This document shows positions 1,276-53,331 of a stretch of 64,000 nt of DNA, one piece after another. How positions within the stretch are numbered: position 1 is the first letter of the stretch; the number at the start of each line of letters is the position of its first letter. Source of the DNA: Candidatus Omnitrophota bacterium. Lineage in GTDB: Bacteria > Omnitrophota > Gorgyraeia > Gygaellales > Profunditerraquicolaceae. The notes under the pieces were generated by a model. The model had not been told where the DNA came from. It was given only the letters and a program-made list of their open reading frames with translations, and searched no databases. The translations under genes were made by a program, and so were the position numbers. The stretch is taken from positions 10,422 to 74,421 of the forward strand of contig JBDRKE010000033.1 in NCBI GenBank assembly GCA_043814315.1. The letters run 5' to 3'.

Positions 1276-1276
1276 G

Positions 1277-1814: not shown

Positions 1815-1978
1815 ATTGTGTTAAAAGGATTACGGAAGCGTTATGCGAATCGGCTAACGTATAACGTCTGACGTACGCGTGACGCCCAACGCATAACGAT
1901 TCCTGCCTGCCGGCAGGCAGGGAAGGCAGGGCGGGCAGGCGCGCTACGGATCCGATGACCGAATAATATCTAATCAAA

Positions 1979-2944
1979 ATGGCCATCAAGAAAATCGCGG
2001 TTTTGACGACAGGAGGAGACTCCCCCGGCATGAATGCGGCGATACGCGCCGTGGTGCGATATGCTACCTTTCACAAATTAGAGGTAATAGGGGTTTTTCG
2101 CGGGTTCCGGGGCCTCATTAACGAAGAAATAAAACCGTTTGACCACCGTTCTGTTTCGGGGATCATCAACCAGGGGGGCACGATCTTGAAGACCGCGCGC
2201 TGTCCTGAGTTTAAGACCCAAGACGGGCAAGACAGGGCCTACGCAACATTAAAGAAGAACGGTATTGACGCGATGGTTGTCATCGGCGGTAACGGCAGTT
2301 TTACGGCGGCGCATGAATTCGGTACAAAATATAAAGTTCCCTGTATCGGTATCCCGGCTTCCATCGATAATGATATTAACGGGATTGACGTCACCATAGG
2401 CGTGGATACCGCTATCAATACGGCGCTGACGGCCATAGATAATATCCGTGATACGGCAACCTCCATGGAACGGATTTTTGTGGTTGAGGTTATGGGTAGA
2501 GGCTCAGGGTTCATTGCTTTGTCTGTGGCTTTAGCTGCCGGCTGCGAAGACGTCATCATCCCTGAGGTAAAATTAGATTTGGACAATATCTGTCATAATA
2601 TTGTCAACGGAAACTTACGGGGTAAGATAAGCTGGATTATTGTGGTAGCCGAGGGGGCGGGAAGCGCTGCGGATATCGCAAAAAAAATCTCGCAGATAAC
2701 CAGCCTGGAAGCGCGTGCCGTGATTTTAGGGCATATTCAAAGAGGGGGACGGCCCACGGCTGCCAGCCGAGAGATGGCCTTGAATCTGGGGTGTGCGGCT
2801 GTGGAGTGTTTATTAAAAGGCGAACAGGATAAGGCGGTGGCGATAAGGTGCGGGGAAATATACACCGTTGATTTGGCGTACGCGATCAAGCATAAGGAAT
2901 TGAAGGTGGATAAGTGGTATGATTTGATAAAGGTATTAACTTAA
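1979..2944 (+). CDS. pfkA: ATP-dependent 6-phosphofructokinase
   Basis: 321 aa with TTGGDSPGMNAAIR, GGNGS, PASIDND and MGRGSG motifs. Confidence 0.92.
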   Translation: MAIKKIAVLTTGGDSPGMNAAIRAVVRYATFHKLEVIGVFRGFRGLINEEIKPFDHRSVSGIINQGGTILKTARCPEFKTQDGQDRAYATLKKNGIDAMVVIGGNGSFTAAHEFGTKYKVPCIGIPASIDNDINGIDVTIGVDTAINTALTAIDNIRDTATSMERIFVVEVMGRGSGFIALSVALAAGCEDVIIPEVKLDLDNICHNIVNGNLRGKISWIIVVAEGAGSAADIAKKISQITSLEARAVILGHIQRGGRPTAASREMALNLGCAAVECLLKGEQDKAVAIRCGEIYTVDLAYAIKHKELKVDKWYDLIKVLT

Positions 2945-2947
2945 ATG

Positions 2948-3060
2948 AAAAATCCCAAATCCCAATATTGCCAAATCCCAAATCCAAAACTATTTGGGTT
3001 TTGGATTTTGACATTTGGATTTATTTGGTAGTATTGGTATTATTTGGATTTTGGATTTCT
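2948..3060. repeat. word-repeat long imperfect hairpin (aaatccc / gggattt words)
   Basis: The left arm is built of aaatcccaaat words and the right arm of ggattttggattt words. It shares tttggtagtattggtattatttg with 36216-36300 and ggattttgacatttggattta with 52333-52452. Confidence 0.7.
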
Positions 3061-3085
3061 CGCGTTAATTAAGGGAGGAAAAGCG

Positions 3086-4541: not shown

Positions 4542-6194
4542 ATGCGTTCCGATAAGATTAAAAAAGGATTAGAGAGGGTTCCGCACCGCGCTCTTTTGCA
4601 TGCTACGGGTTTGAGCAGAAAAGATCTGAAAAGGCCCTTTATCGGGGTGGCAACCTCTTTTACGGACCTCATCCCCGGCCATATCGGTATGCGAGACTTA
4701 GAGCGCTTCATTGAGCGCGGGATTTGTTACGGCCAGGGCGTGCCGTTTTTCTTCGGCGTGCCCGGGATCTGCGACGGCATCGCCATGGGGCATTTAGGGA
4801 TGTGTTACCCGTTAGCCTTAAGAGAGATCGTGGCGGATACGATTGAGACGGTTTGTAATGCCCATAGCCTCGACGGGATCGTGTGCCTGACGAATTGCGA
4901 TAAGATCACGCCGGGCATGCTGATGGGTGTGGCACGCCTTAATATCCCCGCGATTATCTTGACGGCAGGCCCTATGATGTCTGGCCGTTTTCGACAGAAA
5001 AAGTTAGCTTTTGTGCATGACACCTATGAAGCCCTGGCCAGGGCAAAAAAAGGAGAAATATCTTCGCAAGAATTATCTTGTTTAGAAATGGAGGCTTGTC
5101 CCGGGGCAGGTTCCTGCCAGGGCCTCTACACGGCGAATACCATGGCCTGTTTAACCGAAACCTTAGGGATGTCTTTGCCGGGATGCGCAACGGCCTTAGC
5201 GGTTTCAGCTAAGAAGCGTAGAATCGCCCAAGCCAGCGGTGAGCGTATCGTGGAATTGGCGAAAAAAAATATTAAACCTTTGGATATCATCAATCAAAGG
5301 TCTTTGGAAAATGCCATTACCGTGGATATGGCCCTGGGCGGCTCAAGCAACACGGTTTTGCACCTTATGGCCATCGCCCATGAGACGGGAATAGAATTGG
5401 ATCTTAAAACATTTGATAAAATCAGCAAGCATACCCCGCACATCACAAACCTAGAACCCGCCGGGCCTCACTTTATGGAAGATTTAGAATATGCCGGAGG
5501 AATCCCTGCCGTGCTTAGAAGACTAAAGAGCAGATTAAACAACGCGATGACTCTTAGCGGTAAAAGAATATTTGATATCGCGGATGATGCCGTGATCTCT
5601 GACGAGGAAGTGATTCGTTCCTTTGAGCGCGCTTATCATAAGCAGGGCGGTATTGCCGTGTTGTTTGGGAATCTTGCGCCTGATGGAGCCGTGGTCAAGC
5701 AGGCGGCCGTCAGTCCCAAGATGATGCGATCCAGCGGCAAGGCTAAAGTTTTTAACCGCGAAGAAGAAGCCATGCAGGCGATTTTGAATAAGAAGATAAA
5801 AGCAGGGGATGTGGTTGTTATCCGCTACGAAGGCCCCAGCGGAGGCCCGGGCATGAGGGAAATGCTGGCTCCCACCTCTGCGATTGTGGGGATGGGCTTG
5901 GCTGAATCCGTGGCCCTGATTACCGACGGAAGGTTCTCCGGCGGCACCCAAGGCCCCTGCATCGGGCATATTTCCCCTGAGGCTTCCAGCCGCGGCCCCC
6001 TTGCGATTTTGAAGGACGGTGATATAATCAGCATAGATATACCGAATAGAAAAATAGAGGTTAAACTAAATAAAACCGAAATTGAAAAAAGATTTAAAAA
6101 TTGGAAACCTGTTTTGCCGAAGATTAAATCAGGGTATCTGGGAAGGTATTCTAAACTGGTCAGTTCGGCGGATAAAGGAGCCATTTTAGAATGA
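4542..6194 (+). CDS. ilvD: dihydroxy-acid dehydratase
   Basis: 550 aa with [19 protein letters not shown] and GRFSGGT motifs. The TGA stop overlaps the ilvB ATG. Confidence 0.95.
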
Positions 6195-7453
6195 CAGGCG
6201 CACAAATCTTAATAGAGTGTTTGAAGCGCGAAGGGGTCAAGGTCATGTTCGGCTATCCCGGAGGCCAGGTCCTGCCTATTTTTGATAATCTTTATGATTC
6301 GGATATAAAGTTTATCCTCACCCGTCATGAGCAGGGCGCTGCCCATGCCGCTGAGGGATATTCTCGGGCCACGGGTAAGGTGGGGGTGTGCATTGCCACA
6401 TCCGGCCCGGGGGCTACAAATCTGACGACAGGATTGGCGAATGCCTTTATGGACTCCATAGCCATGGTGGCCATTACAGGACAAGTCAAATCTTTTTTGA
6501 TCGGCAACGATGCTTTTCAGGAAGCCGATGTCACGGGTATCACCCGGCCCGTAACCAAGCATAATTATCTGGTGAAGGATGCCAAAGATTTGGCCAGGAT
6601 CGTGCGGGAGGCTTTTTATATCGCCTCAAGCGGAAGGCCCGGCCCTGTGTTAATCGATATTCCTTCCGATATCCAGATGCAGGATATTGAATTCATCTGG
6701 CCTGAGAAGATTCAGATACGTAGCTATAAGCCCACTTATTTCGGACACCCCGGCCAGATCAAAAAAGCAGCTAAGCTTATTGCCAGCGCTAAAAAACCGG
6801 TTATTTATGCCGGAGGCGGAGTTATCAGTTCAGGCGCGCACCTTGTGCTTCGGGAGCTTGCCGAAAAAATCCAGACGCCGGTGACAACCACGCTTATGGG
6901 GATGGGCGGGTTTCCTGACACGCATAAGCTTTCCCTGCAGATGCTGGGCATGCACGGCACTGCCTATGCCAATCATGCGATTATGGAGGCAGATTTGATT
7001 ATTTCGGTGGGCGCGCGTTTTGATGACCGCGTGACCGGCAGGCTCGATTCCTTTGCGCCGGGAGCCAAGATCATCCATATCGATATCGACCCTTCCTCCA
7101 TAAGTAAGAACGTCAAAGTGGATGTGCCTATCGTAGGAGATGCGAAGAATATCGTGGGCGAATTATTGGAGCAGATCAAGAAGGTGCCTGATACCTCGGA
7201 GTGGTTAAAGACGGTTGAGGGATGGAAGAAAAAATATCCCATGAAATATCTGGATGACGATAAACTTCGGCCTCAATATGTAGTGGAACAGCTTTATGAG
7301 GTAACCAAGGGAAAGGCTGTCATCACCACCGAAGTCGGCCAAAACCAGATGTGGGCAGCGCAGTGGTATAAGTATACCTTGCCCCGTACTTTTATTTCCT
7401 CAGGGGGGGCTCGGTACGATGGGGTTTGGTTTTCCTGCGGCCATGGGTGCTAA
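6191..7453 (+). CDS. ilvB: acetolactate synthase large subunit, N-terminal fragment (frame lost in G7 run at 7403-7409)
   Basis: Family-typical sequence up to FISSGG, after which the frame breaks. The reading continues in the next ORF. Confidence 0.85.
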
Positions 7454-7853
7454 AATCGGCTGTCCGGATAAACACGTAATTGATATCGCAGGTGACGGTT
7501 CCATACAGATGAATATTCAGGAGCTGGCGACCTGCGTCTGCAATAAAATTAACGTCAAGGTGGTCATTTTGAATAACGGTTATTTAGGGATGGTGCGTCA
7601 GTGGCAGGAACTTTTTTATAAAAAACGTTATTCGCATGTCTGTATCAGCGGGCCTGATTTTGTGAAGCTTGCAGACAGTTACGGAGCCGTTGGGATTCAG
7701 GTAACCAGGAAACAGGACGTGCGCGCGGCGCTTGAGAAGGCCCTGGCTATTGATAATACGGTATTCATTGATTTTCGCGTTGAACAGGAAGAGAATGTGT
7801 TTCCCATGGTGCCGGCGGGGGAAGCTATTAACAGGATGATGGGGTTGGCATAG
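7419..7853 (+). CDS. ilvB: acetolactate synthase large subunit, C-terminal fragment (TPP-binding region)
   Basis: [12 protein letters not shown]...GDGS...NNGYLGMVRQWQ. Removing one G from the 7403-7409 run restores [14 protein letters not shown]. Confidence 0.85.
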   Translation: MGFGFPAAMGAKIGCPDKHVIDIAGDGSIQMNIQELATCVCNKINVKVVILNNGYLGMVRQWQELFYKKRYSHVCISGPDFVKLADSYGAVGIQVTRKQDVRAALEKALAIDNTVFIDFRVEQEENVFPMVPAGEAINRMMGLA

Positions 7854-9476: not shown

Positions 9477-9800
9477 CGCGCAACAAGGGTTATGTCCTTC
9501 GCAGAGCTCAGGATGATTTTGCTGTAACCGCCAGAGGCACAGCAAAATCAATGCCGTGGATGAAACACTAAGGGATATGCACTTTGCAGAGCTCAGGATG
9601 ATTTTGCGCCTAACCCCGAGCATGGCTCGGGATAAAATTAAGCCTAATCACCAGAGGTAGGCTTAATTTTAACCGCCAGAGGCACAGCAAAATCAATGCC
9701 TTGGATGAGGAAGTAAAGGAGATATGCACCTCGCAGGGCGAGGTGCGATTTTGGCATAGGCACCAGAGGTATGCCAAAATCGTGCCTTGGATGAAGAAAG
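9456..9800 (+). repeat. tandem iteration of the ilvC 3' end plus hairpin units
   Basis: ATGCC(T/G)TGGATGA... plus a stop occurs at 9456, 9551, 9696 and 9782. Each unit carries gcagagctcaggatgatttt-like sequence and a CCAGAGG-loop hairpin. Confidence 0.8.
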
Positions 9801-9897
9801 CGTAAAGTGTAAAGCGAAAAGCGTAAAGTTAAAGTGTAAAACTAAAAGTTTTGAATTTTAAGTTTTAGTTTGGCGCATTGCGCTTTGAGTTTTGAGC
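9797..9897. repeat. word-repeat long hairpin (gtaaag / cttt.. words)
   Basis: gcgtaaagtgtaaagcgaaaagcgtaaagttaaagtgtaaaac on the left faces gttttgaattttaagttttagtttgg...ctttgagttttgag on the right. Confidence 0.55.
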
Positions 9898-15144: not shown

Positions 15145-15429
15145 ATGATTCAAGAGGTTATGACCACAGAGCAGTTAGCCAAATATTTGCAATTGGATGA
15201 ACAGACCATTTACCGCAAGGCACGTGCGGGCCAGATTCCGGCAGTACATATCGGAAAGACTTTAAGGTTTAAGAAAGAAGTAATCGACGGCTGGCTGAGG
15301 ATTTCTTCTCTAAGGTGGACAGCCAAGAAAAGGCAGTCCTTAAGGGGCTGGGCAGAGGAATTTGCCAAGGAAAAGGGACTTAAGGAAGAAGATTTAGAGA
15401 AGGCAATCTCCAAGAGAAGATATCATTGA
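15145..15429 (+). CDS. excisionase-family HTH DNA-binding protein (putative antitoxin)
   Basis: MTTEQLAKYLQLDEQTIYRKARAGQIPAVHIGKTLRF is the excisionase/MerR-like HTH pattern. It overlaps the PIN gene by 4 nt. Confidence 0.75.
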   Translation: MIQEVMTTEQLAKYLQLDEQTIYRKARAGQIPAVHIGKTLRFKKEVIDGWLRISSLRWTAKKRQSLRGWAEEFAKEKGLKEEDLEKAISKRRYH

Positions 15430-15833
15430 TGATAAAAGTCATCCTTGATACTAATGTTCTAATCTCTAGTCTTTTCTGGAAAGGTTCTTCCCGCCATATC
15501 GTAGATTTAGCCATCGCCAGTAAGATCAAATCCGTAACTTCCCCTGAAATAATGGAAGAGGTGGAGGCGGTTTTATACGAAGACTTTCCGCAGGTGCCTT
15601 ATGAGAAAATTGAATGGATCATCAGAGACATTTTAAGTTATTCTCAGTTGATCATACCGCGCCGGGTTACGGTGAAAAGATTAAGGGATTCCAAGGACAC
15701 GAAAATCATTGCCTGTGCTTTAAACGCGAAAGCGGAATATATCGTTACAGGAGACAAAGACCTTCTTGCGTTGGAGAAATATGCAGAAGTAAGGATACTA
15801 ACCCCCAAAACCTTCTTAGATTTATTCAAATAG
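15426..15833 (+). CDS. PIN-domain toxin (putative ribonuclease)
   Basis: VILDTNVLISS at the N-terminus and YIVTGDKDLL near the C-terminus, the conserved acidic PIN residues. Confidence 0.78.
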   Translation: MMIKVILDTNVLISSLFWKGSSRHIVDLAIASKIKSVTSPEIMEEVEAVLYEDFPQVPYEKIEWIIRDILSYSQLIIPRRVTVKRLRDSKDTKIIACALNAKAEYIVTGDKDLLALEKYAEVRILTPKTFLDLFK

Positions 15834-32937: not shown

Positions 32938-34125
32938 ATGAAAGATTTCTTAGAGGGTTCTCGGGCGGTTGCCGAGACCGTGAAACTTTGTAAGCCGGGG
33001 GTGATTTCCGCTTACCCCATTACGCCCCAGACGCACATCGTCGAAGAATTAGCCAAGATGGTGGCTAACGGCGAATTAGGCTCTTCGTTTGTCAATGTGG
33101 AGAGCGAGCATTCCGCTGCCTCCGTGGTCCTGGGAGGGGTAGCTGCAGGCGTGCGTTCTTACACGGCGACCAGCTCACAAGGCCTGCTTTATATGGGAGA
33201 GGTGATTTTTAATATCGCGGGGATGCGCCTGCCGCTCGTTCTGACTTGTGCCAACAGGGCTATCTCAGCCCCCATCAATATTTGGAACGACCAGCAGGAT
33301 TCCGTATCGCTGCGGGATGCCGGATGGATACAGTTGTATGCGGAGAATATCCAGGAAACAGTTGACCTTCATCTTATGGCCTATCGCATCAGCGAAGACA
33401 AGTCTATGATGCTTCCGGTGATGGTGTGCATGGATGGTTTCATTTTAACGCATGGCATGGAGGCCGTGGATATTCCTGAACAGGATAAGGCGGATAAGTT
33501 CCTGCCTGCTTACAAACCTCTCTATAAGCTTGATCCTGCCGCGCCTTTGACTATGGGGTTGCTGGCAGACCCTGATTATTACATGGAAACACGTTTTGCC
33601 ATTCAGGAGACCCTGAAGGCAGCCTTAAATTTTATCCCTAAGGTCAGCCAGGAATTTAAAAGCGTTTTCGGCCGGGATTATAAAGATTGTTTAATAGAAG
33701 AGTATGGCACCAGGGATGCCCAGAAGGTGATTGTGGCCATGGGTTCTGTCTGCGGCACCATCAAGGAAGTGGTGGACCAGATGCGGCAGAAAGGTAAAAA
33801 GGTCGGTTTGTTAAAGATTGTCTCTTACCGGCCGTTTCCTTACGCGCAGGTTTATCAGGCACTCAAGAATGTGCCGCAGGTTGCGGTATTAGATAAAGCC
33901 GTTTCTTTGGGGGCATGGCCTCCTTTAGCCGTGGAGATCAAGGCCGCCTTCTGCGGAAAAAAGAAGGCGCCTAAGGCCGTTGGTTCTTTTGTCGCAGGTT
34001 TAGGCGGCAGGGATATAACGCTTGATTCGATAAGGGAGATATTCAGAAGGCTCACGCAAAAAGAAATCAACTGGGAGTTTATCGATTTAAAACCCGAGTT
34101 GCTCAGGGAGGAATATGGAGAATAG
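32938..34125 (+). CDS. porA: 2-oxoacid:ferredoxin oxidoreductase alpha subunit
   Basis: 395 aa with GSRAVAE...AYPITPQT...ESEHSA motifs. Confidence 0.9.
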   Translation: MKDFLEGSRAVAETVKLCKPGVISAYPITPQTHIVEELAKMVANGELGSSFVNVESEHSAASVVLGGVAAGVRSYTATSSQGLLYMGEVIFNIAGMRLPLVLTCANRAISAPINIWNDQQDSVSLRDAGWIQLYAENIQETVDLHLMAYRISEDKSMMLPVMVCMDGFILTHGMEAVDIPEQDKADKFLPAYKPLYKLDPAAPLTMGLLADPDYYMETRFAIQETLKAALNFIPKVSQEFKSVFGRDYKDCLIEEYGTRDAQKVIVAMGSVCGTIKEVVDQMRQKGKKVGLLKIVSYRPFPYAQVYQALKNVPQVAVLDKAVSLGAWPPLAVEIKAAFCGKKKAPKAVGSFVAGLGGRDITLDSIREIFRRLTQKEINWEFIDLKPELLREEYGE

Positions 34126-35611
34126 AGTTTTGTTTAAACCGGGCCATACCGCATGTGCGGGTTGCGGCCAGTCTTTGGCTGCCCGTTTAGTCTTAGAAGC
34201 AGCCGGCCCCAATACCATCGTGGTGAATAATACGGGCTGCCTGGAGGTGTTTTCCACAAAATATCCGGAATCCGCATGGGGCGTGCCCTGGATTCACTCT
34301 CTGTTCGAGAATGCCGCGGCTGTGGCTTCGGGAGTTGAATCCGCCTTGATTTATTTAGGTAAGAAAGAGGGGATTAATGTTATTGCCCAGGCAGGTGACG
34401 GTGGTACTGCGGACATAGGCCTGCAGGCTTTATCCGGCATGTTGGAGCGGGGGCATGATATTTTATACGTCTGTTACGACAATGAGGCCTATATGAATTG
34501 TTTAAGCATATCCTCTTCAGTCATGACAAAAGAGGGTCTTAAAAGAATAACAGAAATAAAAATTGGTGACGAAATTTGTGCTTTTGACCAAAATAACCAT
34601 CAGATGGTCATAAAGAAATGTAGTGGAGTATTTGATAATGGTAGAAAAGAAGTATTTGAGCTCAAGACCCTCTATTATTCTATAAAGGCAACAGCCAATC
34701 ATCCCTTTTTGGTTTTACAGAGAAATGAAAAAGGAGGGCATAGCAGTTTAGTTTGGAAGATGCTTAAGGATGTGGATATAGCGACTGGTGATAGAGTTGT
34801 AACATTAAAAAGCATGAATGACGATACTCCTTTTCGTTTCCTAGACTTGCATAAAAGAATGTCCGTCAGTAAAATATCCACTTTTCTTCCACAGGAACAA
34901 AAAGAGAAATTTGTTGGAGGTTTGATGCTGGCTGAAGAAGAGTTCTTGCCAGATAATAAATTTTTCCAGACTGAAGAAGTATTAAGCATAAAGTCAAAAG
35001 GAGTGGAGCCAACTTTAGATTTAAGGATAGAAGAGGAGCATAATTTTATTGCCGATGGCATCGTCGTTCATAACACGGGCATTCAACGCAGCGGCCTCAC
35101 CCCTTTTCATTCCGCGACAACGACAAGCCCCTTTGGCCGTCAATCCTTTGGAAACATCCGGCCTAAAAAACCTATGCCTGAAATTGCCCTGGCGCACGGC
35201 ATCCCTTATGTGGCCACGACCTCTGCGGGCTTCATGCAGGATTTGCAGAGAAAAGTCAAAAAGGCCCTTTCTATCAAAGGCCCCAAATACCTGCAGATTC
35301 ATGTCCCTTGTCCTTTGGGCTGGAGGCATGAGCCAAATCTAACGCTGGCCGTGGCAAAATGTGCGGTTGAGACGGGCCTTTATCCTTTAATTGAATATGA
35401 AGGAGGCGCCCTTGTGTCCCGTCGGCAGATAACACCGAAACCCGTTCAGGAGTATCTGAAAGTTCAGGGCAGATTCAAGCACCTCTTGAATGCGCCCGAG
35501 GAGATCAGGAAGATCCAGGAAATAGCGGATCATAATATCGAGAAGTACGGACTAAGTGAAAAATCACAAATTCCAAATTCCAAATCACAAACAAATCCTA
35601 ATACCCAATGA
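34115..35611 (+). CDS. porB: 2-oxoacid:ferredoxin oxidoreductase beta subunit (TPP-binding), interrupted by an intein
   Basis: CAGCG, GDGG and YDNEAYMN|TGIQRSG extein motifs. 498 aa, versus about 300 aa once the insert is removed. Confidence 0.9.
   Translation: MENRVLFKPGHTACAGCGQSLAARLVLEAAGPNTIVVNNTGCLEVFSTKYPESAWGVPWIHSLFENAAAVASGVESALIYLGKKEGINVIAQAGDGGTADIGLQALSGMLERGHDILYVCYDNEAYMNCLSISSSVMTKEGLKRITEIKIGDEICAFDQNNHQMVIKKCSGVFDNGRKEVFELKTLYYSIKATANHPFLVLQRNEKGGHSSLVWKMLKDVDIATGDRVVTLKSMNDDTPFRFLDLHKRMSVSKISTFLPQEQKEKFVGGLMLAEEEFLPDNKFFQTEEVLSIKSKGVEPTLDLRIEEEHNFIADGIVVHNTGIQRSGLTPFHSATTTSPFGRQSFGNIRPKKPMPEIALAHGIPYVATTSAGFMQDLQRKVKKALSIKGPKYLQIHVPCPLGWRHEPNLTLAVAKCAVETGLYPLIEYEGGALVSRRQITPKPVQEYLKVQGRFKHLLNAPEEIRKIQEIADHNIEKYGLSEKSQIPNSKSQTNPNTQ
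34499..35074 (+). mobile_element. mini-intein (192 aa) in PorB
   Basis: It starts CLSISSSVMT, has block B TANHPF, and ends EHNFIADGIVVHN followed by +1 Thr. The flanks join to the conserved YDNEAYMN-TGIQRSG. The insert is AT-richer than the exteins. Confidence 0.88.
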
Positions 35612-35712
35612 CCAAAATTCCAAACTTAAAGTCAAAAACAAATAAATTTGGGCATTGTAATTTTGGTATTGTTTATTGTTTGTAATTTGTGTATTGTGAT
35701 TTGTGGTTTGAC
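35558..35712. repeat. word-repeat long hairpin (aaatcacaaa / tttgtgattt words)
   Basis: The left arm overlaps the last ~17 codons of porB. The right arm is ttgtttattgtttgtaatttgtgtattgtgatttgtggtttg. Related to 53332-53482. Confidence 0.7.
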
Positions 35713-35731: not shown

Positions 35732-36211
35732 ATGGGTAAACAAGCAAGAGCCATAGTGGACTTGAGCCTCAAAGACCTGGTCAAAGACCTGAATAAGGCC
35801 TATTGCGATGAATGGTTGGCGTTTTACCTCTATTGGCATATGGCCCAAACCGTTTCCGGGCGCGCCTATGAGGATATATCAGAGATGCTGAACAAAATCG
35901 CCAAGGACGAATTAGAGCATGCCGGGGAACTGGCGGATTTAATCACTAAGCTGGGGGATGTGCCTATCGCTAACCCCATGGATTTAGAGAAAGGCGCTAA
36001 CTCTCCTTATCTTATGCCGCCCAAGAATACCGCAGATATCAACAGGATTATCCGCATCGTGACCGAAGCCGAAGCCGGGGCCATCGAAGTCTACAATAAG
36101 ATCGCTAAAAAAACGTTAGGCAAGGACAATGTTACGTATCAGCTCGTCACGCATATACTCTCCGAGGAAGTCAGCCACGAAGAGATGTTTGAGAATTTGA
36201 TGGAAAGATAA
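35732..36211 (+). CDS. ferritin-like/Dps-like (DPSL/bacterioferritin-related) protein
   Basis: Four-helix ferritin pattern with E...ELEH...E..H ligand spacing. Confidence 0.65.
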   Translation: MGKQARAIVDLSLKDLVKDLNKAYCDEWLAFYLYWHMAQTVSGRAYEDISEMLNKIAKDELEHAGELADLITKLGDVPIANPMDLEKGANSPYLMPPKNTADINRIIRIVTEAEAGAIEVYNKIAKKTLGKDNVTYQLVTHILSEEVSHEEMFENLMER

Positions 36212-36215
36212 TACG

Positions 36216-36300
36216 GAAAAATCCAAAATCCAAAACTATTTGAGATTTTGAAATTAGGATTTGTTTGGTAGTATTGGTATTATTTGAAATTGGGATTTCT
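36216..36300. repeat. word-repeat hairpin, homolog of 2948-3060
   Basis: aaatccaaaatccaaaactatttgagattttg...tttggtagtattggtattatttgaaattgggatttct. Confidence 0.7.
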
Positions 36301-36326
36301 CAGTTGAAAAAGGAGGTTTAACAGAG

Positions 36327-37978: not shown

Positions 37979-38107
37979 GCACAGATGATCACTGATGAAG
38001 AGATACAGATGATCGCAGATATCCCTCTAAAGCGGATTTTATCTGAGATCATCTGCCGGTTTTAAAGGAAGGTTGTACGCGGATCTTTATCTGTGGCCAT
38101 CTGTGTT
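37979..38107. repeat. word-repeat long hairpin (cacagat / atctgtg words)
   Basis: cacagatgatcactgatgaagagatacagatgatcgcagat faces atctgagatcatctgcc...atctttatctgtggccatctgtg. It uses the same words as 51521-51614. Confidence 0.65.
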
Positions 38108-38397: not shown

Positions 38398-41300
38398 ATG
38401 TTACGCAAAACAACCTCATTAGTTTTAACTCTTGGTTTATTCTTCCAACAATTAAGCTTTGCGCAGGTAGCTGTGGACCTTAATATCGCCGGGCACCTTT
38501 CCAGGATGGCTTCTGGGATGGCCGTAGAAAAATTCAGGCCTGTGCACCTGCGCTATTTTTCCTACGACAGCCTAAGTGATAATTTCAAGGTGCTCCTGGA
38601 TAAAGGAGACCTCAAGCAGTTGGATCCTCTTAAGGCCGAAGAATCAGCCAGGCAGCTTTTGAGTTACTTTTTGATAGGGGTCACTATGCCGGATGAGGCG
38701 TTTTGGGTGAACCTTAGGCCTGATTCAGAGAACCAGATTATAGACCCTTACCTGGAAAAGACAGATGTAGGTAAGATTATGCTTAAGGCGGACCTTCAGC
38801 TTAAGAAGGATACCGCAGCCCTCACTTCTCCCAAGACTCCCGAAGGCAGGGAATATTGGAACCGGCTCTATAAAAAAGCAGAGGAGCTCTATGGTTATGA
38901 GGCGGTTAATATACCTGCCTTAACCAGGCCCTGGATAGTCCCCGGTGAAATCATCATCAGGGAATCCCAGGAGAGCGCCTATATCTATAAGGCGACTCTT
39001 AAGGTGATGCTGGAGCAGGATTATTTAAAGGGGCAGGGGAGTGGCCAGGGTGCAGGGTGGATGGTACAGGGTGCAGGGAATTATGAGTTTAAGGATGAGC
39101 GCTCCAGGATTCTGAATGAATACTCAACCCAGCTTGTACGCGAACTCATCGTTCCGAAACTCACCAAAGAGGTCAATAGCGCCAAGCGCTATGCCGCAGT
39201 CAGGCAGGTGTATTATTCACTCATCCTTTCCCGCTGGTTCAAGCAGCGTTTTTCCGGAAAAAGCGGCACCTATGCTTCTCTCATCAATACCGAAGACCTC
39301 ACGAACCTGCTTTCCAGGGAACCCTGGTCAAAGACCGATTATTTCAAGCAATACCAGAAGTCATTCGCAGAAGGGGAATATAACATCCAAGAGCCGGTTT
39401 ACACTCCCACAGGCCAAACGATACGGAGTTATTTCAGCGGAGGGATGGCACTGCAAGCTATCAATACAGGTAATCGTTTTACAGTTGAACCTAACCTGGC
39501 CTTGTTTAAAACAGGGTTTCCTTTGCAAGGTGATGCTAAAGGAATTATTAGCGCCGGCTCGCCGGTGACGGAAGCGCAGGCATTAGCGAAAGAGTTTGCT
39601 GAATCAATGGCAGCTAATGACATTATTAATTCTGACCTTAAGGCGCAGGAGGAGGTAATCTCTATCTTGCTGCCCCTCATAGAAGAGTTCTCCCTTCAGT
39701 TCGGGCGCGTTTCTGTTACAGAGGAAGCATTTGATTATTATAGATGGATTCAAGGTCTTCAGGCTGACCCTAAATATGTGATGGAATTACAAAATCCGGC
39801 ATTTTATTCAAAGAAAGCCAGGGAGTTTGTCAATGAAAGGTTTGATAATATCCCCACTGTTGTTGAGAATAAATTATCAAGGTTGGCCCTTGAGGAACCG
39901 GAGCTGGTCCAATTCAAAGATGAGTTAATATTTTGGCTGCAGCAGGTTATAAGTGACGGCGTGCGCAGCGACCTTCCTGATGATTCCAAAAAAGTGAGGA
40001 TATCGGCAATATTGAGCCTACCTAACTATATCGAAGCTTCCCCCCAGAAATACCCTCCTGAGATGAATTCCCTAATAAATTCTTTTCTGGATACGCATAG
40101 TGTGGAGAAGATAAGGGCAATTGAGTCAACAAACAATAAGGAATTGGGCGAGATACTAAACATACTTACATCCAGCGTGCTTGATACCAGCCTCGTAGCT
40201 TCCGCCGGATCGCCGGTGGAATCGGAAGCTGCTTTAGTGCAACAGATAAAGGACCGGTTGTGGCGTGTAATTAAGGAAACCGAGGATTCGCTACTGTTTA
40301 ATGGTACAAAATATTTGCCTAAAAAATTAAATCAAGCTGCAAGTTTGAAAGAATTAGGCAATTTTCGTGGTGAGTTTTTTGGAGCAATCGATGAACTAAT
40401 AGCATGGAATAAAGAGAATTCCACGGTATTAAAATCTTCTGAATACAACATTGGCAGGTTGAATCAGCTAAAGAACTCTATAGTTGATATCTTACCCCAA
40501 CTCTTTGCGCAGGAAATAAATAATCTATTTAACGAAAATGTGAAATTTGAGATCTATAAAGGCGAAAGTGACGGCAATTATTATTTTAAAATGTGGGACA
40601 GAATAATAAATCAGCCCAATGTTTCCAGCGCCACAGACGGAGGTTTTTATTCCGGTAAACCCAACCTGCATAGATTGTTTATAGCCCTACTAGAATCCGG
40701 CTTTGCCCTAGATCCTAAAACCAATACGATTACCTTTAGTAACAGCCAGGCAGTCGATGAGATTAAAACCCAGATTAAAGCTCATATGCCTGAATCCGCC
40801 GCCGGCCCTTCGACTCGCTCCGCTCGCTCAGGGTCAGCGCAGCCCGATGAAGACAAAGCCGCCGGCTCGCCGGTTCAAACGGAAACTGAAGATCTGAGAA
40901 AGCTTAAGAACCTTCTTCTTTTGAAGATGGAAGACCTGACGCCTGAACATCGAAAAATCATAGGAGACTCATCTCTTGAATTGCCTTTAGGCGGAACGAC
41001 TTCATTAAAAGAATTTAATGAATCCCTTATTAAGTCTATTAAAGAAGTCGACGGCTTGATAACACGAAGCGAAGAGATTATCAAACATTATAAAGATATC
41101 CTCTCCTACAGGTGGTTAGAAAACTCAGCGAAAGATAATTTAGAGGCGTGGGGTTCATTAAAAAATATCTTAGAAGAGATATCAAAAGAATTATCAAAAT
41201 ACGCATCAATCTATCCGGCCATATTCGTGAAGGGCTTTTTAACAACTGGCTTAATGGATCAGGCCCAGGCGCCGGACGAAGGTGCCGCCGGCTCGCCGGT

Positions 41301-43587
41301 GGTTTACCCCTGGGGCAGGCAATTGTCGCCTTTGCCCAGATCTGGTGAAAACATCGTGAGCGCATTAAAAAGGTTGATGGAAAATCCCGTAACCAAAATG
41401 ATTACATTGAAAGTAGAGAATAGTTTGTATCAGAGAATAGAGCTCAACATAGAAAGCATCACAAGCGAAAAAGATAAGAGCACAATAGCGGTTTCGCCGC
41501 GCGATTTAAATGAAATATTGAACAACCTTAAAGCATCTGGTGAATTTGAGTTATCACAAGTAGGAAAAGGTTATGATACCTATATAACGGCAACTCGCAA
41601 GGCCGCCTACCTTTTGCGCTTTGTTCTTGAAAGACTCGAAAGAGTAAAGAGAGCAGAAGAAATCTTGAAAAATGAGTTGAAGAACTTTAATCATGATACG
41701 GGCTTGTCACGTTTTCCGTGGCGAAGTATATCTTACTTATCGGGATATGAAATCAATATGAATTATAATGATAAAATCAGAGAAGCAAGGGTTTATTTGC
41801 TGGGTAAAGGAGGAGAGGAGTTGTTTCAACTTGTTTATCCTGAAACAAAATTGGACGAGTTGGATAGAAAAGTAATCAAGCTGGATTTAACAGATGCAGT
41901 CAATGCAGAGCTTTGGGCCTTAAAGCAGTTAGAATCAGAATTGGAAGAAGCGAAGGCTTTGCAGGGGCGCGCAACGACCCTCGCGACGCAGGCTTCTGCC
42001 GCCGGCTCGCCGGTGAGGGAGAGTAACCATAACCATTTCACCGTGTCGTATGAGGTCACTAATGGTCAGTTTTCAGATAAGGATTTACGAGAAGATATCC
42101 AAAACTTGAAAGAACATCTTCGTAGTCAAGATACAGGCACGATAACATTTGCAAGAGAATGGATCGAAGGGGTTGTTCATCTTGAGGGGGGTCTATTCGC
42201 TCCTTATAATGCCGACGCAGAACTAGGTTTGTTTATTCAATTCCTGGCTTCTTTTATCCCTGGAACAAATATCCATAGCGCTTTAGGCGACAGTGATAAT
42301 TTAGACCTGGTTCGTAGCTTAAAATTAAGCCTTGTTCATAAAGAAGGCAAGGCGCCCAAAGGGGCAACTGTCGCTATCTCAGCTCTTAGCAAACAGATCG
42401 AGCAAGGAGTGGTAACCTTTAGCTTTAATGGCGCCGACTATTTGACGCAGGCAAAGGACAAATATATCTTTGATATAAAAGATATTCCTACTATGGTTGA
42501 AGAAGAATTAACTGCTAACGGCTCTTATGTTACATTAAAAAATCTGTTAGTTACGCATCTGCAGAAGGTTGTAGCATTGCATCAAGAAGGCCGAGCAACC
42601 GCTCAGAATGTTATATCTGCCATAAAAGCTCTTGCGGAATATATTCGCCTAGTAAGAAGCACGGGCATTGATTTAGGGGCGTGGAATAAAGTTACCGCTG
42701 GTCAAATTAACTGGCCTTTAAATCAAGTGCCGGAATTGGATTTTATTCTGTCTGAGTTAGTTAGCAGAATGCGGGGAAACTATAATGATAGAGGGCAAGA
42801 GCTGGACAAAATATTAAATTCACTTGAGAATGTTATTAAGGAAGCTGCCGCCGGCTCGCCGGTGCAGGAGTCAAACGCTATGATTATGGAACGGGCATTA
42901 AATGTTTTTCAAGACCCTCAAAAATTAAGTGAATGTTATGTAGATAATCAAATAATGGGAAAGGGTGAGGGGAAAGAAAGAAGAATACGTTACCTCTCAG
43001 GTATTGCTGAAGGTTATAAGATTTCTTTGCGCTTTGATGCAGACCACAACCACACCATGATTACATTAGTGAATCCTGAAAGTAGAATTGTAATAGCGCG
43101 ACCTTCTGTCAGTGACGCTGTTTATTATTTCGAAGTCGATAGAGACGTTATACTGTATCGATTAATTAACGAGATGAAAGATAAACTGGGCATTTCTTCT
43201 TCGCCGGTACAGGCGGTGTCTACAGATATTGCAGATGAAGGGGTAGGAGGAATTGATTTTCGTGCCCTGCCTATGACCATCCAGCCCATGGGGAGCTTCC
43301 AGGGGTTGAATTTCAGCTTACCGAAGTTAAGCCAGGCAGAGCTGGAGAGGATAAATGTGGATACGGAGCTGCGCCAGATAGAGCAAATGGTAGACTCCGG
43401 TATTACGCCTTCCGGAGCAAGGATTAAAGAGCTTATCGCTGCCTGCGCGCAAAAAGGCAAAATTAGCGCTTACGCCGACCATTTATTGCTTTGCCTCGTA
43501 GATATATGTAAACTGCAGGAGGAGGAGGCGAGCGAGACTTCGGCGGAGTTGAGGGAAGCGCTGGTTATAGTTGATGCGGTGAGCTAG
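38398..43587 (+). CDS. giant modular secreted protein (1729 aa), family unrecognised
   Basis: Signal peptide (LVLTLGLFFQQLSFAQV), then a ~350-aa conserved N-domain, six unrelated modules separated by AAGSPV junctions, and a conserved ~125-aa C-domain (GGIDFRALP...SGITPS...). SD gggagg. Confidence 0.85.
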   Translation: MLRKTTSLVLTLGLFFQQLSFAQVAVDLNIAGHLSRMASGMAVEKFRPVHLRYFSYDSLSDNFKVLLDKGDLKQLDPLKAEESARQLLSYFLIGVTMPDEAFWVNLRPDSENQIIDPYLEKTDVGKIMLKADLQLKKDTAALTSPKTPEGREYWNRLYKKAEELYGYEAVNIPALTRPWIVPGEIIIRESQESAYIYKATLKVMLEQDYLKGQGSGQGAGWMVQGAGNYEFKDERSRILNEYSTQLVRELIVPKLTKEVNSAKRYAAVRQVYYSLILSRWFKQRFSGKSGTYASLINTEDLTNLLSREPWSKTDYFKQYQKSFAEGEYNIQEPVYTPTGQTIRSYFSGGMALQAINTGNRFTVEPNLALFKTGFPLQGDAKGIISAGSPVTEAQALAKEFAESMAANDIINSDLKAQEEVISILLPLIEEFSLQFGRVSVTEEAFDYYRWIQGLQADPKYVMELQNPAFYSKKAREFVNERFDNIPTVVENKLSRLALEEPELVQFKDELIFWLQQVISDGVRSDLPDDSKKVRISAILSLPNYIEASPQKYPPEMNSLINSFLDTHSVEKIRAIESTNNKELGEILNILTSSVLDTSLVASAGSPVESEAALVQQIKDRLWRVIKETEDSLLFNGTKYLPKKLNQAASLKELGNFRGEFFGAIDELIAWNKENSTVLKSSEYNIGRLNQLKNSIVDILPQLFAQEINNLFNENVKFEIYKGESDGNYYFKMWDRIINQPNVSSATDGGFYSGKPNLHRLFIALLESGFALDPKTNTITFSNSQAVDEIKTQIKAHMPESAAGPSTRSARSGSAQPDEDKAAGSPVQTETEDLRKLKNLLLLKMEDLTPEHRKIIGDSSLELPLGGTTSLKEFNESLIKSIKEVDGLITRSEEIIKHYKDILSYRWLENSAKDNLEAWGSLKNILEEISKELSKYASIYPAIFVKGFLTTGLMDQAQAPDEGAAGSPVVYPWGRQLSPLPRSGENIVSALKRLMENPVTKMITLKVENSLYQRIELNIESITSEKDKSTIAVSPRDLNEILNNLKASGEFELSQVGKGYDTYITATRKAAYLLRFVLERLERVKRAEEILKNELKNFNHDTGLSRFPWRSISYLSGYEINMNYNDKIREARVYLLGKGGEELFQLVYPETKLDELDRKVIKLDLTDAVNAELWALKQLESELEEAKALQGRATTLATQASAAGSPVRESNHNHFTVSYEVTNGQFSDKDLREDIQNLKEHLRSQDTGTITFAREWIEGVVHLEGGLFAPYNADAELGLFIQFLASFIPGTNIHSALGDSDNLDLVRSLKLSLVHKEGKAPKGATVAISALSKQIEQGVVTFSFNGADYLTQAKDKYIFDIKDIPTMVEEELTANGSYVTLKNLLVTHLQKVVALHQEGRATAQNVISAIKALAEYIRLVRSTGIDLGAWNKVTAGQINWPLNQVPELDFILSELVSRMRGNYNDRGQELDKILNSLENVIKEAAAGSPVQESNAMIMERALNVFQDPQKLSECYVDNQIMGKGEGKERRIRYLSGIAEGYKISLRFDADHNHTMITLVNPESRIVIARPSVSDAVYYFEVDRDVILYRLINEMKDKLGISSSPVQAVSTDIADEGVGGIDFRALPMTIQPMGSFQGLNFSLPKLSQAELERINVDTELRQIEQMVDSGITPSGARIKELIAACAQKGKISAYADHLLLCLVDICKLQEEEASETSAELREALVIVDAVS
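39550..43212 (+). repeat. interspersed in-frame junction repeat GCCGCCGGCTCGCCGGTG (7 sites)
   Basis: Exact 18/18 at 41284, 41998 and 42847; 17/18 at 40858; 16/18 at 39550 and 40201; core tcgccggt at ~43201. Confidence 0.9.
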
Positions 43588-43820: not shown

Positions 43821-44699
43821 ATGAAGAATAAAGTGTTGAAATTGGGCGTTCCCAAGGGAAGCCTGCAGGAGTCGACCTTTAAGATGTTTAAGAAGGCTGG
43901 GTTTAATATCTCCGTTTCAGAGCGCTCCTATTTTCCCTCCATCGATGATCCGGAAATAGAACCGGTGCTTTTGCGCGCCCAGGAGATGTCCCGCTACGTT
44001 GAAACAGACCTGGACTGCGGGATCACCGGAGAGGACTGGATCCAGGAGAATAGCTCTCAAGTCGTAAGAATTACGGAATTAGTGTACGCGAAACAATCCT
44101 TAAGGCCGGTGCGCTGGGTGGTTGCCGTGCCCGAGGACTCCTGTGTCAAGAGCATCAAAGACCTTGAAGGCAAGCAGATTGCCACCGAGCTGGTCAATGT
44201 CACTAAAAAATTCCTGAAAGAGAACGGAATAAAAGCGGACGTGGAATTCAGCTGGGGCGCTACGGAGGTTAAAGTCGCGCAAGGCCTGGTTGAGGCTATC
44301 GTGGAGCTTACCGAGACCGGCAGGAGCCTTGAGGCGAACAAGCTTAAAATCATTGCCACGGTCTGCCAATCCACCACCCAGTTTATCGCCAATAAGGATT
44401 CCTATAAAGATGCCTGGAAAAAGGCCAAGATGGAGCAGGTTGCCCTTCTCTTAAAAGGCGCCATCGCTGCCGAAGAGAAGGTCGGCCTTAAAATGAACGT
44501 CAGCAAAAAAGACCTTAAAAAGGTCCTTGCGCTTTTGCCGGCCTTAAAAAGGCCGACCATTTCGGGCCTTTCCGATGACGGCTGGTTTGCCATCGAGACG
44601 GTCATCGACGAGAAAGTGGTGCGGGAATTGATACCCGGCCTCAAAAATGCAGGGGCCCAGGGGATTATAGAGTATCCGTTGAATAAGGTTATCTATTAA
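43821..44699 (+). CDS. hisG: ATP phosphoribosyltransferase (long form)
   Basis: 292 aa; LGVPKGSL and TGRSL motifs plus a C-terminal regulatory domain. Confidence 0.88.
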
Positions 44700-44784
44700 G
44701 TAACCAGTAACCAGAAACCAGAAGAATATTTTTCTGTACTCTGTCATCTGTAATCTGGTTTTTCCCGAACGCAGTGAGGGCAAA

Positions 44785-46691: not shown

Positions 46692-46801
46692 TGTGTAATG
46701 TGTAATGTGTAATGATGGTGTTATGCATCAAAGTGTAATGGAGCGCATTCGCCTTCCATTTACACAAAATAACATTAAACCCGCATTACACTTTACACAT
46801 T
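46692..46801. repeat. word-repeat long hairpin (gtgtaatg / cattacac words)
   Basis: tgtgtaatgtgtaatgtgtaatg ... cattacactttacacatt, with a nested gtgtaatgga/tccatttacac hairpin. Confidence 0.7.
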
Positions 46802-46819: not shown

Positions 46820-47749
46820 ATGGAATCTTTATATCAGCGTGACGTATACGGTCAAACCTTAGTCGAGTTAGGCAGACAAAACAAGGATATCGTTGTTTTG
46901 GATGCGGACCTGTCCAGTTCCACCCGTACCGGCTTATTCGCGAAGGAGTTTCCCGGGAGATTTTTTAATTTTGGCGTCGCTGAACAGAACATGATGTCCG
47001 CCGCTGCCGGGCTAGCCAGCTGCGGTAAGACCGTGTTTCTTTCAACCTTTGCGGTCTTTGCTACCGGCAGGGCCTGGGACCAGGTGAGGAATTCCGTGGC
47101 TTACAACAGTTTTAACATCAAGATTGTGGCCTCCCATGCCGGCATCACCGTGGGGCCTGACGGCGCCAGCCATCAGGCGCTGGAAGATATAACACTGATG
47201 CGCGTTATCCCCAACATCAATATTATTGTTCCCTGTGATGCCCCTCAAACCCGCGAGGCGGTAGAGGCGGCAGCGCAGACCCCGGGGCCTTTTTATATAC
47301 GCCTTGGAAGGCCTAAGGTCCCTACCATTGAAAATAAAGGGGAATTTAAATTAGGCAAGGCCCAGGTGTTAACCGAAGGAAACGATATAGCGATTATTGC
47401 CTGCGGTGTTTTGGTTTGCGAGGCATTGGCAGCCGCGAAAAATCTTCTCGGCAAAGGCATAAAGGCGCGCGTGATTAATATCCACACGCTTAGGCCTCTG
47501 GATGCAGCAACGATTATTAAAGCGGCCCAAGAGACACGCGGCATCGTTGTATGCGAGGAGCATACTGTCATCGGAGGTTTAGCCTCAAGCGTTCAGGAGG
47601 TTGTTGCGGAGAATGCGCCGGTGAAAGTCATGTGCCTGGGTATTAAAAACAGATTTGGCCAATCGGGTGAGCCAGCCGAGCTTCTCAAAGTTTATAACCT
47701 GACAAGTTCGGATATAGAAAAGGCTGGTTCAGGCCTGTGTCCAAGTTAA
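46820..47749 (+). CDS. tkt: transketolase, C-terminal (pyrimidine-binding) subunit
   Basis: FNFGVAEQNM, HAGITVGPDGASHQ motifs. Confidence 0.9.
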   Translation: MESLYQRDVYGQTLVELGRQNKDIVVLDADLSSSTRTGLFAKEFPGRFFNFGVAEQNMMSAAAGLASCGKTVFLSTFAVFATGRAWDQVRNSVAYNSFNIKIVASHAGITVGPDGASHQALEDITLMRVIPNINIIVPCDAPQTREAVEAAAQTPGPFYIRLGRPKVPTIENKGEFKLGKAQVLTEGNDIAIIACGVLVCEALAAAKNLLGKGIKARVINIHTLRPLDAATIIKAAQETRGIVVCEEHTVIGGLASSVQEVVAENAPVKVMCLGIKNRFGQSGEPAELLKVYNLTSSDIEKAGSGLCPS

Positions 47750-51520: not shown

Positions 51521-51614
51521 GTAGCACAGATTAGCACAGATGAAAAGCGCACAAGATGAACACAGATAAAATCTGTGATTATCTGTTTCATTCAATCTGC
51601 GAGCATCTGTGTTC
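51521..51614. repeat. word-repeat long hairpin (cacagat / atctgtg words)
   Basis: gcacagattagcacagatgaaaagcgcacaagatgaacacagat faces atctgtgattatctgtttcattcaatctgcgagcatctgtg. Confidence 0.7.
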
Positions 51615-52325: not shown

Positions 52326-52332
52326 AGCAAGT

Positions 52333-52452
52333 AAAATTCAAATGACAAAGCACAAAATTCAAAATAAGCCCCCATTTCCAAATCCCAAACTTACTTTTTG
52401 GATTTGGGATTTTGGATTTGTTTTGGATTTTGGATTTTGACATTTGGATTTA
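52333..52452. repeat. word-repeat long hairpin (aaattc/aaatccc vs ggattt words)
   Basis: ...ccaaatcccaaac ttac tttttggatttgggattttggatttgttttggattttggattttgacatttggattt. Confidence 0.7.
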
Positions 52453-52465
52453 GTAAAGTCTGTAC

Positions 52466-53328: not shown

Positions 53329-53331
53329 TGT

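Follow-up and report, generated by a model that had tools for sequence, protein, structure and literature searches.

We analyzed a 64,000-nt stretch of an Omnitrophota chromosome (hereafter, the window) in which many intergenic spacers hold long hairpins, with arms built of tandem short words on one side and their complements on the other. The original prediction listed 12 such spacers and treated them as a single design with a different word at each locus. Inverted repeats were present at all 12 positions, and the stable word hairpins proved real; they are better described as several dispersed families plus singletons, with 5 of the 12 being members of one conserved element of ~140 nt, here termed the AAATCC family. 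Our favored explanation, to which we assign a probability of roughly 60%, is that the hairpins represent several families of small, non-coding, palindromic dispersed repeats that resemble MITEs (miniature inverted-repeat transposable elements) or bacterial interspersed mosaic elements (BIMEs) and reside between genes as intercistronic mRNA hairpins. The mRNA role is proposed by analogy. The kind of repeat is an established one; the particular families seen here appear to be undescribed, as do the way they are distributed and the bias in their orientation, and we found no paper describing Omnitrophota hairpins or repeats of this sort.

The homology suspected among some of the hairpins was borne out. 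Positions 2944-3061 and 36210-36301 are 87% identical over 63 nt, and a direct-repeat search aligned 35555-35710 with 53327-53480 at 80-82% identity. The first pair shares a 22-nt block, TTGGTAGTATTGGTATTATTTG, which we used as an exact probe of a metagenome collection. The block was found in 59 contigs from many different samples, nearly all of which hold a complete AAATCC hairpin. Alignment of 18 clean copies yielded a consensus of ~140 nt (ATGATAAATCCAAAATCCAAATACTACCAAATCCAAAATAAATCCCAAATCCCAAATCCAAAA - loop - TTTTGGATTTTGAAATTTGGATTTATTTGGTAGTATTGGTATTATTTGGATTTTGGATTTATC), with similarity ending sharply at both sides. Each arm is ~55-60 nt long and consists of AAATCC(A/C) heptamers. The ends are fixed (ATGATAAATCC ... 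GGATTTATC), and the complementarity of ATGATAAATCC and GGATTTATC(AT) provides the terminal inverted repeats characteristic of MITEs. The consensus hairpin comprises 32 pairs, including one clearly covarying position (U-A in 9, C-G in 4 and U·G in 4 sequences). Within its 3' arm, 9 nt are duplicated and left unpaired (TTGGTAGTA|TTGGTATTA). This duplication (3025-3046 in the window, and in the consensus) also reads as two TGn + TAnnAT motifs, extended -10-like, which lie 25-45 nt upstream of the next start codon; a two-hexamer promoter scan called no promoter in the 3' arm of the element.

We built a covariance model, CM R1, from the 18-copy alignment. Across 0.51 Mb of Omnitrophota-like loci, it detected the element at 69 separate places, including five in the window, and the local density was roughly one copy every 4-13 kb. 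Where sites were non-orthologous, the copies showed a mean identity of 81% between samples and 88% within a sample. As expected of MITEs, the element is thus present as many dispersed, non-homologous copies with filled and empty sites, and its ~140 nt have neither coding capacity nor a conserved reading frame. No Rfam family matched the AAATCC elements at the gathering threshold, and a permissive Rfam search returned only a weak similarity to hairpins of miRNA precursors (26-32 bits, where the thresholds are 90 or more).

Next to this dispersal stands rapid turnover at orthologous spacers. For synteny, we used loci from relatives of the window: L081 and L082 (SM23_72 and a near relative; ribosomal protein L25 84% identical to that of the window), L083 and L084 (L25 81% identical), L002 (Prs 69% identical), and L110 and L139 (~80% nucleotide identity to window positions 446-14956). 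Gene order was conserved among these loci and spacer content was not. Between prs and the L25 gene, the window has a CACAGAT hairpin in a 113-nt spacer and L083 a CGCAGAT hairpin in a 163-nt spacer, whereas the spacers of L081, L084 and L002 are 21-55 nt long and lack this hairpin. The two hairpins are 58% identical and differ by a compensatory word change (CACAGAT/ATCTGTG vs. CGCAGAT/ATCTGCG), so that words do co-vary between arms, a point that the original prediction had proposed to check. The L25|pth spacer contains an AAATCC element in the window and an unrelated 76-nt word hairpin in L083; it is 8 nt long in L081, and the genes overlap in L085 and L002. Conversely, the S18|L9 spacer measures ~30 nt in the window and holds an AAATCC-type element in L081, and ilvD and ilvB overlap in the window and are separated by a 105-nt word hairpin in L110. 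The window spacers at 1815-1978, 8393-8477 and 9477-9904 (164, 85 and 428 nt) correspond to 15-80 nt in L110, the first of them, around 1836-1922, to ~15-18 nt in L110 and L139.

Even in relatives at 80-90% nucleotide identity, the homologous spacer was often empty or held a different hairpin. The tkt region is 89-92% identical between L081 and L082, yet their hairpins between the two transketolase halves (tktN|tktC) are unrelated; these loci also provide one clean filled/empty pair, in which a 140-nt AAATCC element (L082 642-780) stands where L081 has TTAAATCCCAAA only. Some sites nevertheless stay occupied. At tktN|tktC, all five genomes have a word hairpin. Those of the window, L081 and L083 use words unrelated to one another; in L082 and L084, the GTTCGTAG-type hairpins at this site are 89% identical, compared with 76% for the flanking genes, and differ by exactly one heptamer (a 7-nt indel). 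Likewise, the S6|ssb spacer and the spacer downstream of a ferritin-like gene hold AAATCC-type hairpins in both the window and L081, at a spacer identity of 53-67%. Absence without consequence from homologous spacers of close relatives, as of neutral slippage products, had been named as an outcome that would speak against the original prediction. Hairpins were indeed often absent or replaced there, with some sites remaining filled. Such frequent absence and replacement argue against regulatory hairpins that are fixed and indispensable, and in favor of elements that are mobile or turn over fast.

Because the unpaired 9-nt duplication renders the AAATCC element asymmetric, its orientation can be scored. 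Counting open reading frames (ORFs) that encode 90 aa or more and lie no farther than 90 nt from an element, we found upstream genes co-oriented in 22 cases and opposed in 6, and downstream genes co-oriented in 22 and opposed in 4. Some 80-85% of AAATCC copies run in the direction of their flanking genes. The non-Watson-Crick cells of the consensus pairs comprised 87 G·U vs. 22 A·C overall, and 40 vs. 8 once pairs touching the ascertained 22-mer were excluded, although these cells are sequences rather than independent events, and both the CM alignment and the choice of strand lean to pairing. The G·U excess is therefore suggestive only in pointing to the RNA level. Taken together, the orientation and G·U biases suggest that the elements are transcribed and are tolerated or selected as mRNA hairpins. 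The long hairpins start 0-10 nt past a stop codon and stop 1-42 nt before the next start, a placement that would be partly expected if the few bases of a short spacer alone can take an insertion.

Strand preference was also seen in individual hairpins. The prediction that they fold on either strand holds for most of them and fails for 9797, 52333 and some hairpins of relatives, in which the sense strand is far better; the hairpins at 9797, 52333, L083 9858 and L002 5211 fold mainly or only as sense RNA. Across 27 hand-picked hairpins, the sense strand was more stable in 15, and all large differences favored sense; taken over all 27, this G·U asymmetry is weak evidence alone, and we set it aside. 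The hairpins are not G-U-rich, as had been proposed, since their G·U count (0-7 per 18-53 pairs) is not unusual. The described polarity, with A/C-rich left and T/G-rich right arms, is present and carries no strand information, because any inverted repeat shows it identically on both strands. We also dropped, as independent evidence, a 'chirality' of A-rich 5' and T-rich 3' arms (17 vs. 7 in an unbiased detection of hairpins with at least 20 pairs), which stems mostly from one family.

The hairpins were correctly described as larger than canonical terminators and as lacking a clean T tract, although their 3' arms are T-rich with T3-T5 runs. A terminator scan showed no enrichment (29 found vs. 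24.1 ± 5.4 expected). It called only the apical parts of two hairpins (51561-51577 and 2977-2998) and left the L102 copy uncalled; the call within an AAATCC copy is terminator-like, with an apical stem followed by a U-rich tail. Identity as intrinsic terminators, with a short G+C-rich stem and a T tract, was accordingly rejected. Canonical terminators with T tracts occur elsewhere in the window (43619-43658).

These observations bear on the alternative that survives best, namely that the hairpins are host-encoded cis-regulatory RNAs (terminators, attenuators or mRNA processing sites) selected at particular operon junctions and not mobile. The orientation and G·U biases would fit such RNAs, as would the tktN|tktC site, which is occupied in all five genomes and better conserved between L082 and L084 than its flanking genes, and the terminator-like copy. 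We nonetheless regard this explanation as unlikely. Most occupied spacers are empty or differently filled in relatives at 80-90% identity, and one and the same element stands at unrelated junctions in different genomes. Moreover, the terminator scan is unenriched while T-tract terminators are found elsewhere, the hairpin at 37979-38107 lies in a divergent promoter region, and 15-20% of AAATCC copies are reversed.

We evaluated folding stability as z-scores of the minimum free energy (MFE) against dinucleotide shuffles and against stricter shuffles preserving the composition of each arm. The excess over shuffles was strong in eight hairpins (2948, 52333, 53332, 37979, 51521, 46692, 9797 and 61713; z from -4.3 to -7.5), moderate in one (35558; z = -2.9/-3.8), weak in two (44699 and 1836; z = -2.5 each) and absent in one (36216; z = -0.6, no better than chance), the last because it is a decayed copy. 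In sum, hairpins with a stability far above that of shuffled controls occupy nine or ten of the 12 spacers. Folding of whole spacers agreed with these values and revealed many additional strongly structured spacers. The word texture has a clear period. Of the 49 tandem-repeat rows that Tandem Repeats Finder (TRF) reported for the window, 20 had a period of 7; in 80 comparison loci, mostly belonging to other phyla, 69 of 909 rows did. Intergenic lag-7 autocorrelation reached z = 8.4 over dinucleotide shuffles, and the signal recurred at lags 14 and 21. The window hairpins use at least eight words.

Such a period could also arise if the hairpins were neutral local by-products, formed by heptamer slippage and then template switching to an inverted partner, with neither mobility nor function. 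Beyond the period-7 excess, this explanation would accommodate the 7-nt indel between orthologous hairpins, the singleton word types without relatives and the rapid gain and loss, and heptamer excess elsewhere in bacteria has been ascribed to polymerase slippage (PMC4692102). It does not account for a sharp-ended consensus of ~140 nt at 60 or more non-orthologous sites in many samples, and it leaves the orientation bias and the conserved unpaired 9-nt duplication unexplained. We consider it improbable for the hairpins as a whole; for the singletons, local slippage may still hold.

Paired DNA-uptake sequences (DUS/USS) act as terminators in Neisseria and Haemophilus, and the short words in inverted pairs right after genes recall them. 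An origin of the hairpins as arrays of short recognition words, whether paired uptake sequences serving as terminators or sites for a DNA-binding protein, is very improbable: AAATCC/GGATTT is unenriched in coding DNA (70 observed vs. 62.2 ± 7.3 in shuffles), the entire 140-nt element rather than the word alone is conserved, and words differ by family. We give equally little credence to integron attC-like sites, which are likewise structured, strand-specific and located at 3' ends of genes, given that the flanks here are housekeeping genes in conserved order and not cassettes, that the R''/R' core sites are absent and that no integrase lies nearby (none in the window by Pfam), or to a small protein-coding gene within the element, for which a left-end ATG opens a 25-28-codon ORF and many copies begin TAAATG or ATGA (window copy MKNPKSQYCQIPNPKLFGFWILTFGFIW, by eye), given that the ATG stands in a different frame with respect to the words from copy to copy (ATGAAATCC, ATGATAAATCC) and that loop lengths vary by non-multiples of 3.

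Under our favored explanation of dispersed palindromic repeats, the elements sit in the narrow gap that separates a stop codon from the ribosome-binding site after it, where they are gained, lost and replaced quickly, and smaller palindromes can nest inside them. Replication slippage would homogenize the words within an arm and create the 7-nt texture, which would fit the excess of period 7, the indel of one heptamer and the closer likeness of words within than between hairpins, and pairing between the arms would be maintained by selection or by arm-to-arm templating. The elements would be transcribed within operons, and the sense-strand RNA would fold into a long imperfect stem-loop acting as intercistronic punctuation. 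This stem-loop might serve as a barrier to 3' exonucleases, as a substrate of RNase III, or in partial termination through its apical stem and U-rich 3' arm. By analogy, RNase III processing or termination at the hairpins is plausible.

Several observations weigh against this explanation. Transcription, processing and termination of the elements are each inferred. Neither a transposase nor an autonomous parent element with matching ends was found in the window or between the paired copies of L130, where the intervening genes are serA, serC, clpP and tig, and no clear target-site duplication could be read in the single filled/empty pair (L082/L081). AAATCC copies show no 7-nt length steps, their core length clustering at 118-128 nt, which implies that present-day copies behave as a fixed element and not as a freely expanding array. 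About 15-20% of the copies are in reverse orientation, the G·U counts carry the lean described above, and the hairpin at 37979-38107, located between surA (- strand) and a gene of 1729 aa (+ strand), is downstream of no gene. Finally, the singleton hairpins could be local products. The search for relatives of word types covered 1.8 Mb of loci, and for six or seven window hairpins, those with the words TGTGTAA, GTAAAG, AACCAGA and ATCAGG among them, no relatives were detectable there; with 64 kb of the host genome in view, these singleton words may belong to families too.

A bolder form of the favored explanation, which we hold to be improbable as a whole, would make the AAATCC hairpin a mobile 'operon punctuation cassette' of WOR_2-lineage Omnitrophota. 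In this scenario, the transcript from upstream would be ended or processed by the hairpin, the duplication TGGTAGTAT / TGGTATTAT (TGn plus a -10-like hexamer) would serve as an extended -10 promoter, and transcription would restart 25-45 nt ahead of the start codon that follows. The word texture shared by unrelated families would then reflect a lineage-specific repeat-generating mechanism and not ordinary slippage.

The Correia elements (NEMIS) of Neisseria and the ERIC (IRU) elements of enterobacteria are bacterial MITEs that are co-transcribed with neighboring genes and show insertion polymorphism between strains. Their effects on mRNA depend on orientation and include processing by RNase III or RNase E, changes in stability and sometimes promoters. 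The Omnitrophota elements resemble them in being ~100-150 nt long and non-coding, with long inverted arms and dispersed intergenic copies. They differ in that their arms are low-complexity arrays of 7-nt words, the host is an uncultured Omnitrophota lineage, and neither a parent insertion sequence nor a clear target-site duplication was identified in the loci examined.

In word architecture, the elements are, by analogy, most like the paired heptamer arrays of Xanthomonas. Xanthomonas has paired GGGAATC heptamer arrays, and Nostoc and Calothrix have short tandemly repeated repetitive (STRR) sequences, GGGGA(C/T)T heptamers (Rehm et al. 2015, PMC4692102). The Xanthomonas arrays amount to 70-75 pairs per genome, are convergent and could form stem-loops; the pairs lie nearer to the ORF on their upstream side, often stay in place from one species to another with differing lengths, and are for the most part transcribed, and slippage has been proposed as their cause (PMC4692102). 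The tandem 7-nt units in intergenic DNA that we observed by TRF and lag-7 autocorrelation are comparable. However, Xanthomonas uses a single G-rich, quadruplex-prone word genome-wide, whereas several words and families coexist here. In the Omnitrophota elements, G runs are mostly GG, or GGG irregularly spaced, too short and irregular to form quadruplexes, and the ~140-nt consensus of the AAATCC family is fixed and includes unique, non-repeat segments.

A REPIN is a hairpin of ~100 nt formed by two inverted palindromic units of 20-40 nt and tied to a RAYT transposase (Bertels & Rainey 2011, PMC3116915). The present elements share with repetitive extragenic palindromic (REP) sequences and BIMEs their extragenic palindromic nature and the mosaics created by small palindromes nested in larger hairpins. 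Unlike the units of REPINs, their arms are tandem A/C-rich words that are not palindromic themselves, and no RAYT (Y1 transposase) gene was found within the 64-kb window. Rickettsia palindromic elements (RPEs) are small palindromic repeats that insert in frame into coding genes. A palindrome inside ispE recalls RPEs, as does an element arm that makes up the final 18 codons of the gene for the PFOR beta subunit; most Omnitrophota copies, unlike RPEs, are strictly intergenic.

The ispE palindrome has 26-nt arms at 48318-48371 (AACCCCGCACTTTCAAC...GTAGAAAGTGCGGGGTT), inside the coding sequence (ORF 47737..48666). IspE measures 309 aa in the window and L082 and 288 aa in L083 and L084, and L081 ispE lacks the palindrome segment, with a net in-frame difference of 54 nt. 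It looks like an in-frame palindromic insertion, as with RPEs. L082 and L081, which have identical L25, are 99.4% identical over L082 3229-10972 and 89-92% identical over 1-3170; this switch falls exactly at the ispE palindrome, indicating recombination or chimeric assembly at the repeat.

Among the AAATCC copies of the window, that at 2940..3068 (+ strand) in the pfk-fba spacer scored 101.5 bits with CM R1 on the + strand and 67.1 on the - strand. It starts 4 nt past the stop codon and ends ~20 nt before the ribosome-binding site, carries the 22-nt block at 3025-3046 and has an 18-nt left-arm deletion relative to the consensus (MFE -37.5, z = -4.6); L110 and L139 have an orthologous copy. The copy at 52324..52461 (+ strand; 78.7 bits), between the L25 gene (ctc) and pth, is without the 22-nt block and folds with an MFE of -45.9 on the + and -29.6 on the - strand (z = -6.4). 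Downstream of the ferritin-like gene, 36183..36308 (+ strand; 52.2 bits) is a decayed copy, 87% identical to 2999-3061, that has lost most of its left arm and kept the block (36265-36286), with the hairpin proper at 36216-36300; L081 has a full AAATCC-type hairpin at the matching position. The element at 35552..35711 (no strand assigned) belongs to the AAATCC superfamily as an AAATCAC/AAATTCC variant and scored 47.7 bits on one strand and 44.8 on the other. The final 18 codons of the PFOR beta-subunit ORF (34115..35611) enter its left arm, and the annotated C-terminus is probably element-derived. The same ORF also holds an intein (Intein_splicing/Hint matches).

Between rpsF (S6) and ssb, the AAATCC/AAATCAC-type element at 53323..53492 (no strand assigned; 47.4 bits, z = -7.5) contains the nested mini-palindrome CCTGCCTGCCGGCAGGCAGG at 53376..53396. 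In L081 and L082, this spacer holds an AAATCC-type element with an identical nested palindrome, although the spacers are 53% identical overall. A second window copy of CCTGCCTGCCGGCAGGCAGG (1902..1922) adjoins the weak inverted repeat CGTTATGCG...CGCATAACG at 1836..1900 (z = -2.5), neither having an assigned strand. This repeat had been listed as a word array; it has no tandem words and is simply an inverted repeat of 9-10 nt around a 40-nt loop. As 21-nt exact matches, CCTGCCTGCCGGCAGGCAGG also occurs in L081, L083, L099, L104, L108, L130, L134 and L139, both alone and nested within AAATCC elements, and is REP-like. Metagenome copies contain two more nested palindromes, TTCCCGCC..GGCGGGATCCCGC..GCGGGAGG and TTCGCCATAATCATTGGCGAATCCGCC..GGCGGA. 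Small palindromes nested in the elements form a BIME-like mosaic.

The CACAGAT family comprises the hairpin at 37979..38107 (no strand assigned; MFE -51.5, z = -5.2), which aligns with 51518-51618 and with the CGCAGAT hairpin at L083 9855-9978; the window hairpin between prs and L25 lies at 51521..51614 (+ strand; z = -4.8). The GTTCGTAG/CTACGAAC hairpin of relatives occupies one common site in L082 and L084 and two other sites in L110. The remaining window hairpins are all on the + strand. The TGTGTAA/TTACACA hairpin at 46692..46801 (z = -6.4), in the tktN|tktC spacer between the transketolase halves, has the G/T-rich arm on the left. The GTAAAG/AGTTTTG hairpin at 9797..9897, before leuA, has an MFE of -35.9 on the + vs. 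-11.8 on the - strand (z = -5.4); it folds only as sense-strand RNA because it depends on G·U pairs, 7 among 39. The weak AACCAGA/TCTGGTT hairpin at 44699..44765 (z = -2.5) follows hisG, in a spacer that holds an AAATCC-type element instead in L084, and the ATCAGG/CCTGAT hairpin at 61713..61768 (z = -4.3) lies in the lpxC-fabZ / lpxA spacer, which measures 24 nt in L083.

Further repeats were observed in these spacers. The 3' end of ilvC (ATGCCTTGGATGAAACATTA and neighboring sequence; 9456-9790) is repeated twice downstream, at ~9551 and ~9696, alternating with strong hairpins; the corresponding L110 spacer is 80 nt. Another repeat family occurs at 58489-58660 and 62741-62859 in the window and at 12523-12661, 13106-13179 and 14515-14680 in L083. 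It consists of a C-rich hairpin, TTACCCCCC(C)ACCAC...GTGGTGGGGGGT (or CCCCGCACC in L083), followed by a hairpin module, AATTCGCGC...TAACTTACG...CGTAAGTTA...GCGCTCATT, and often begins with GTGAGG directly after a stop codon.

Omnitrophota is a widespread phylum whose members are nearly all uncultured. The window host is a Candidatus Omnitrophota of the WOR_2 lineage: an NCBI metagenome-assembled genome (MAG) encodes an identical L25, annotated 'Candidatus Omnitrophota bacterium', and proteins adjoining AAATCC copies are identical to those of 'Omnitrophica WOR_2' MAGs, SM23_72 among them. The window is a segment of bacterial chromosome with a G+C content of ~47%, and nearly all of its genes are housekeeping genes on the + strand: ahcY, pfk, fba, ilvD/B/N/C, leuA, PFOR subunits, hisG, split transketolase, prs, L25, pth, S6-ssb-S18-L9, dnaB, bamA and lpxD/C/A. 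Its single Rfam match at the gathering threshold is tRNA-Gln. A lower-G+C stretch at 16204-22407 (35% at 20-22 kb) may be a foreign island; it contains large ORFs without a Pfam match (two on the - strand, of 1111 and 181 aa, and one of 523 aa on the + strand) and adjoins a pair resembling a helix-turn-helix/PIN toxin-antitoxin system (15145..15833). The 1729-aa ORF (38398..43587) is missing between surA and hisG in L081 and L084. The acetolactate synthase large subunit (6191-7853) is split into two overlapping ORFs, 6191..7453 (TPP_N, TPP_M) and 7419..7853 (TPP_C), reflecting a frameshift, a pseudogene or an assembly error.

Overall, a high-copy, conserved and orientation-biased element of Omnitrophota is now defined with a covariance model. 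Knowledge of the element helps to avoid spurious ORFs and false C-terminal extensions when these spacers are annotated, and it provides a lineage marker in metagenomes, a handle on strain-level variation and concrete targets for mapping RNA ends in metatranscriptomes. After Xanthomonas and Nostoc, this is the third independent lineage with an unexplained excess of intergenic heptamers, here with clear hairpin pairing.

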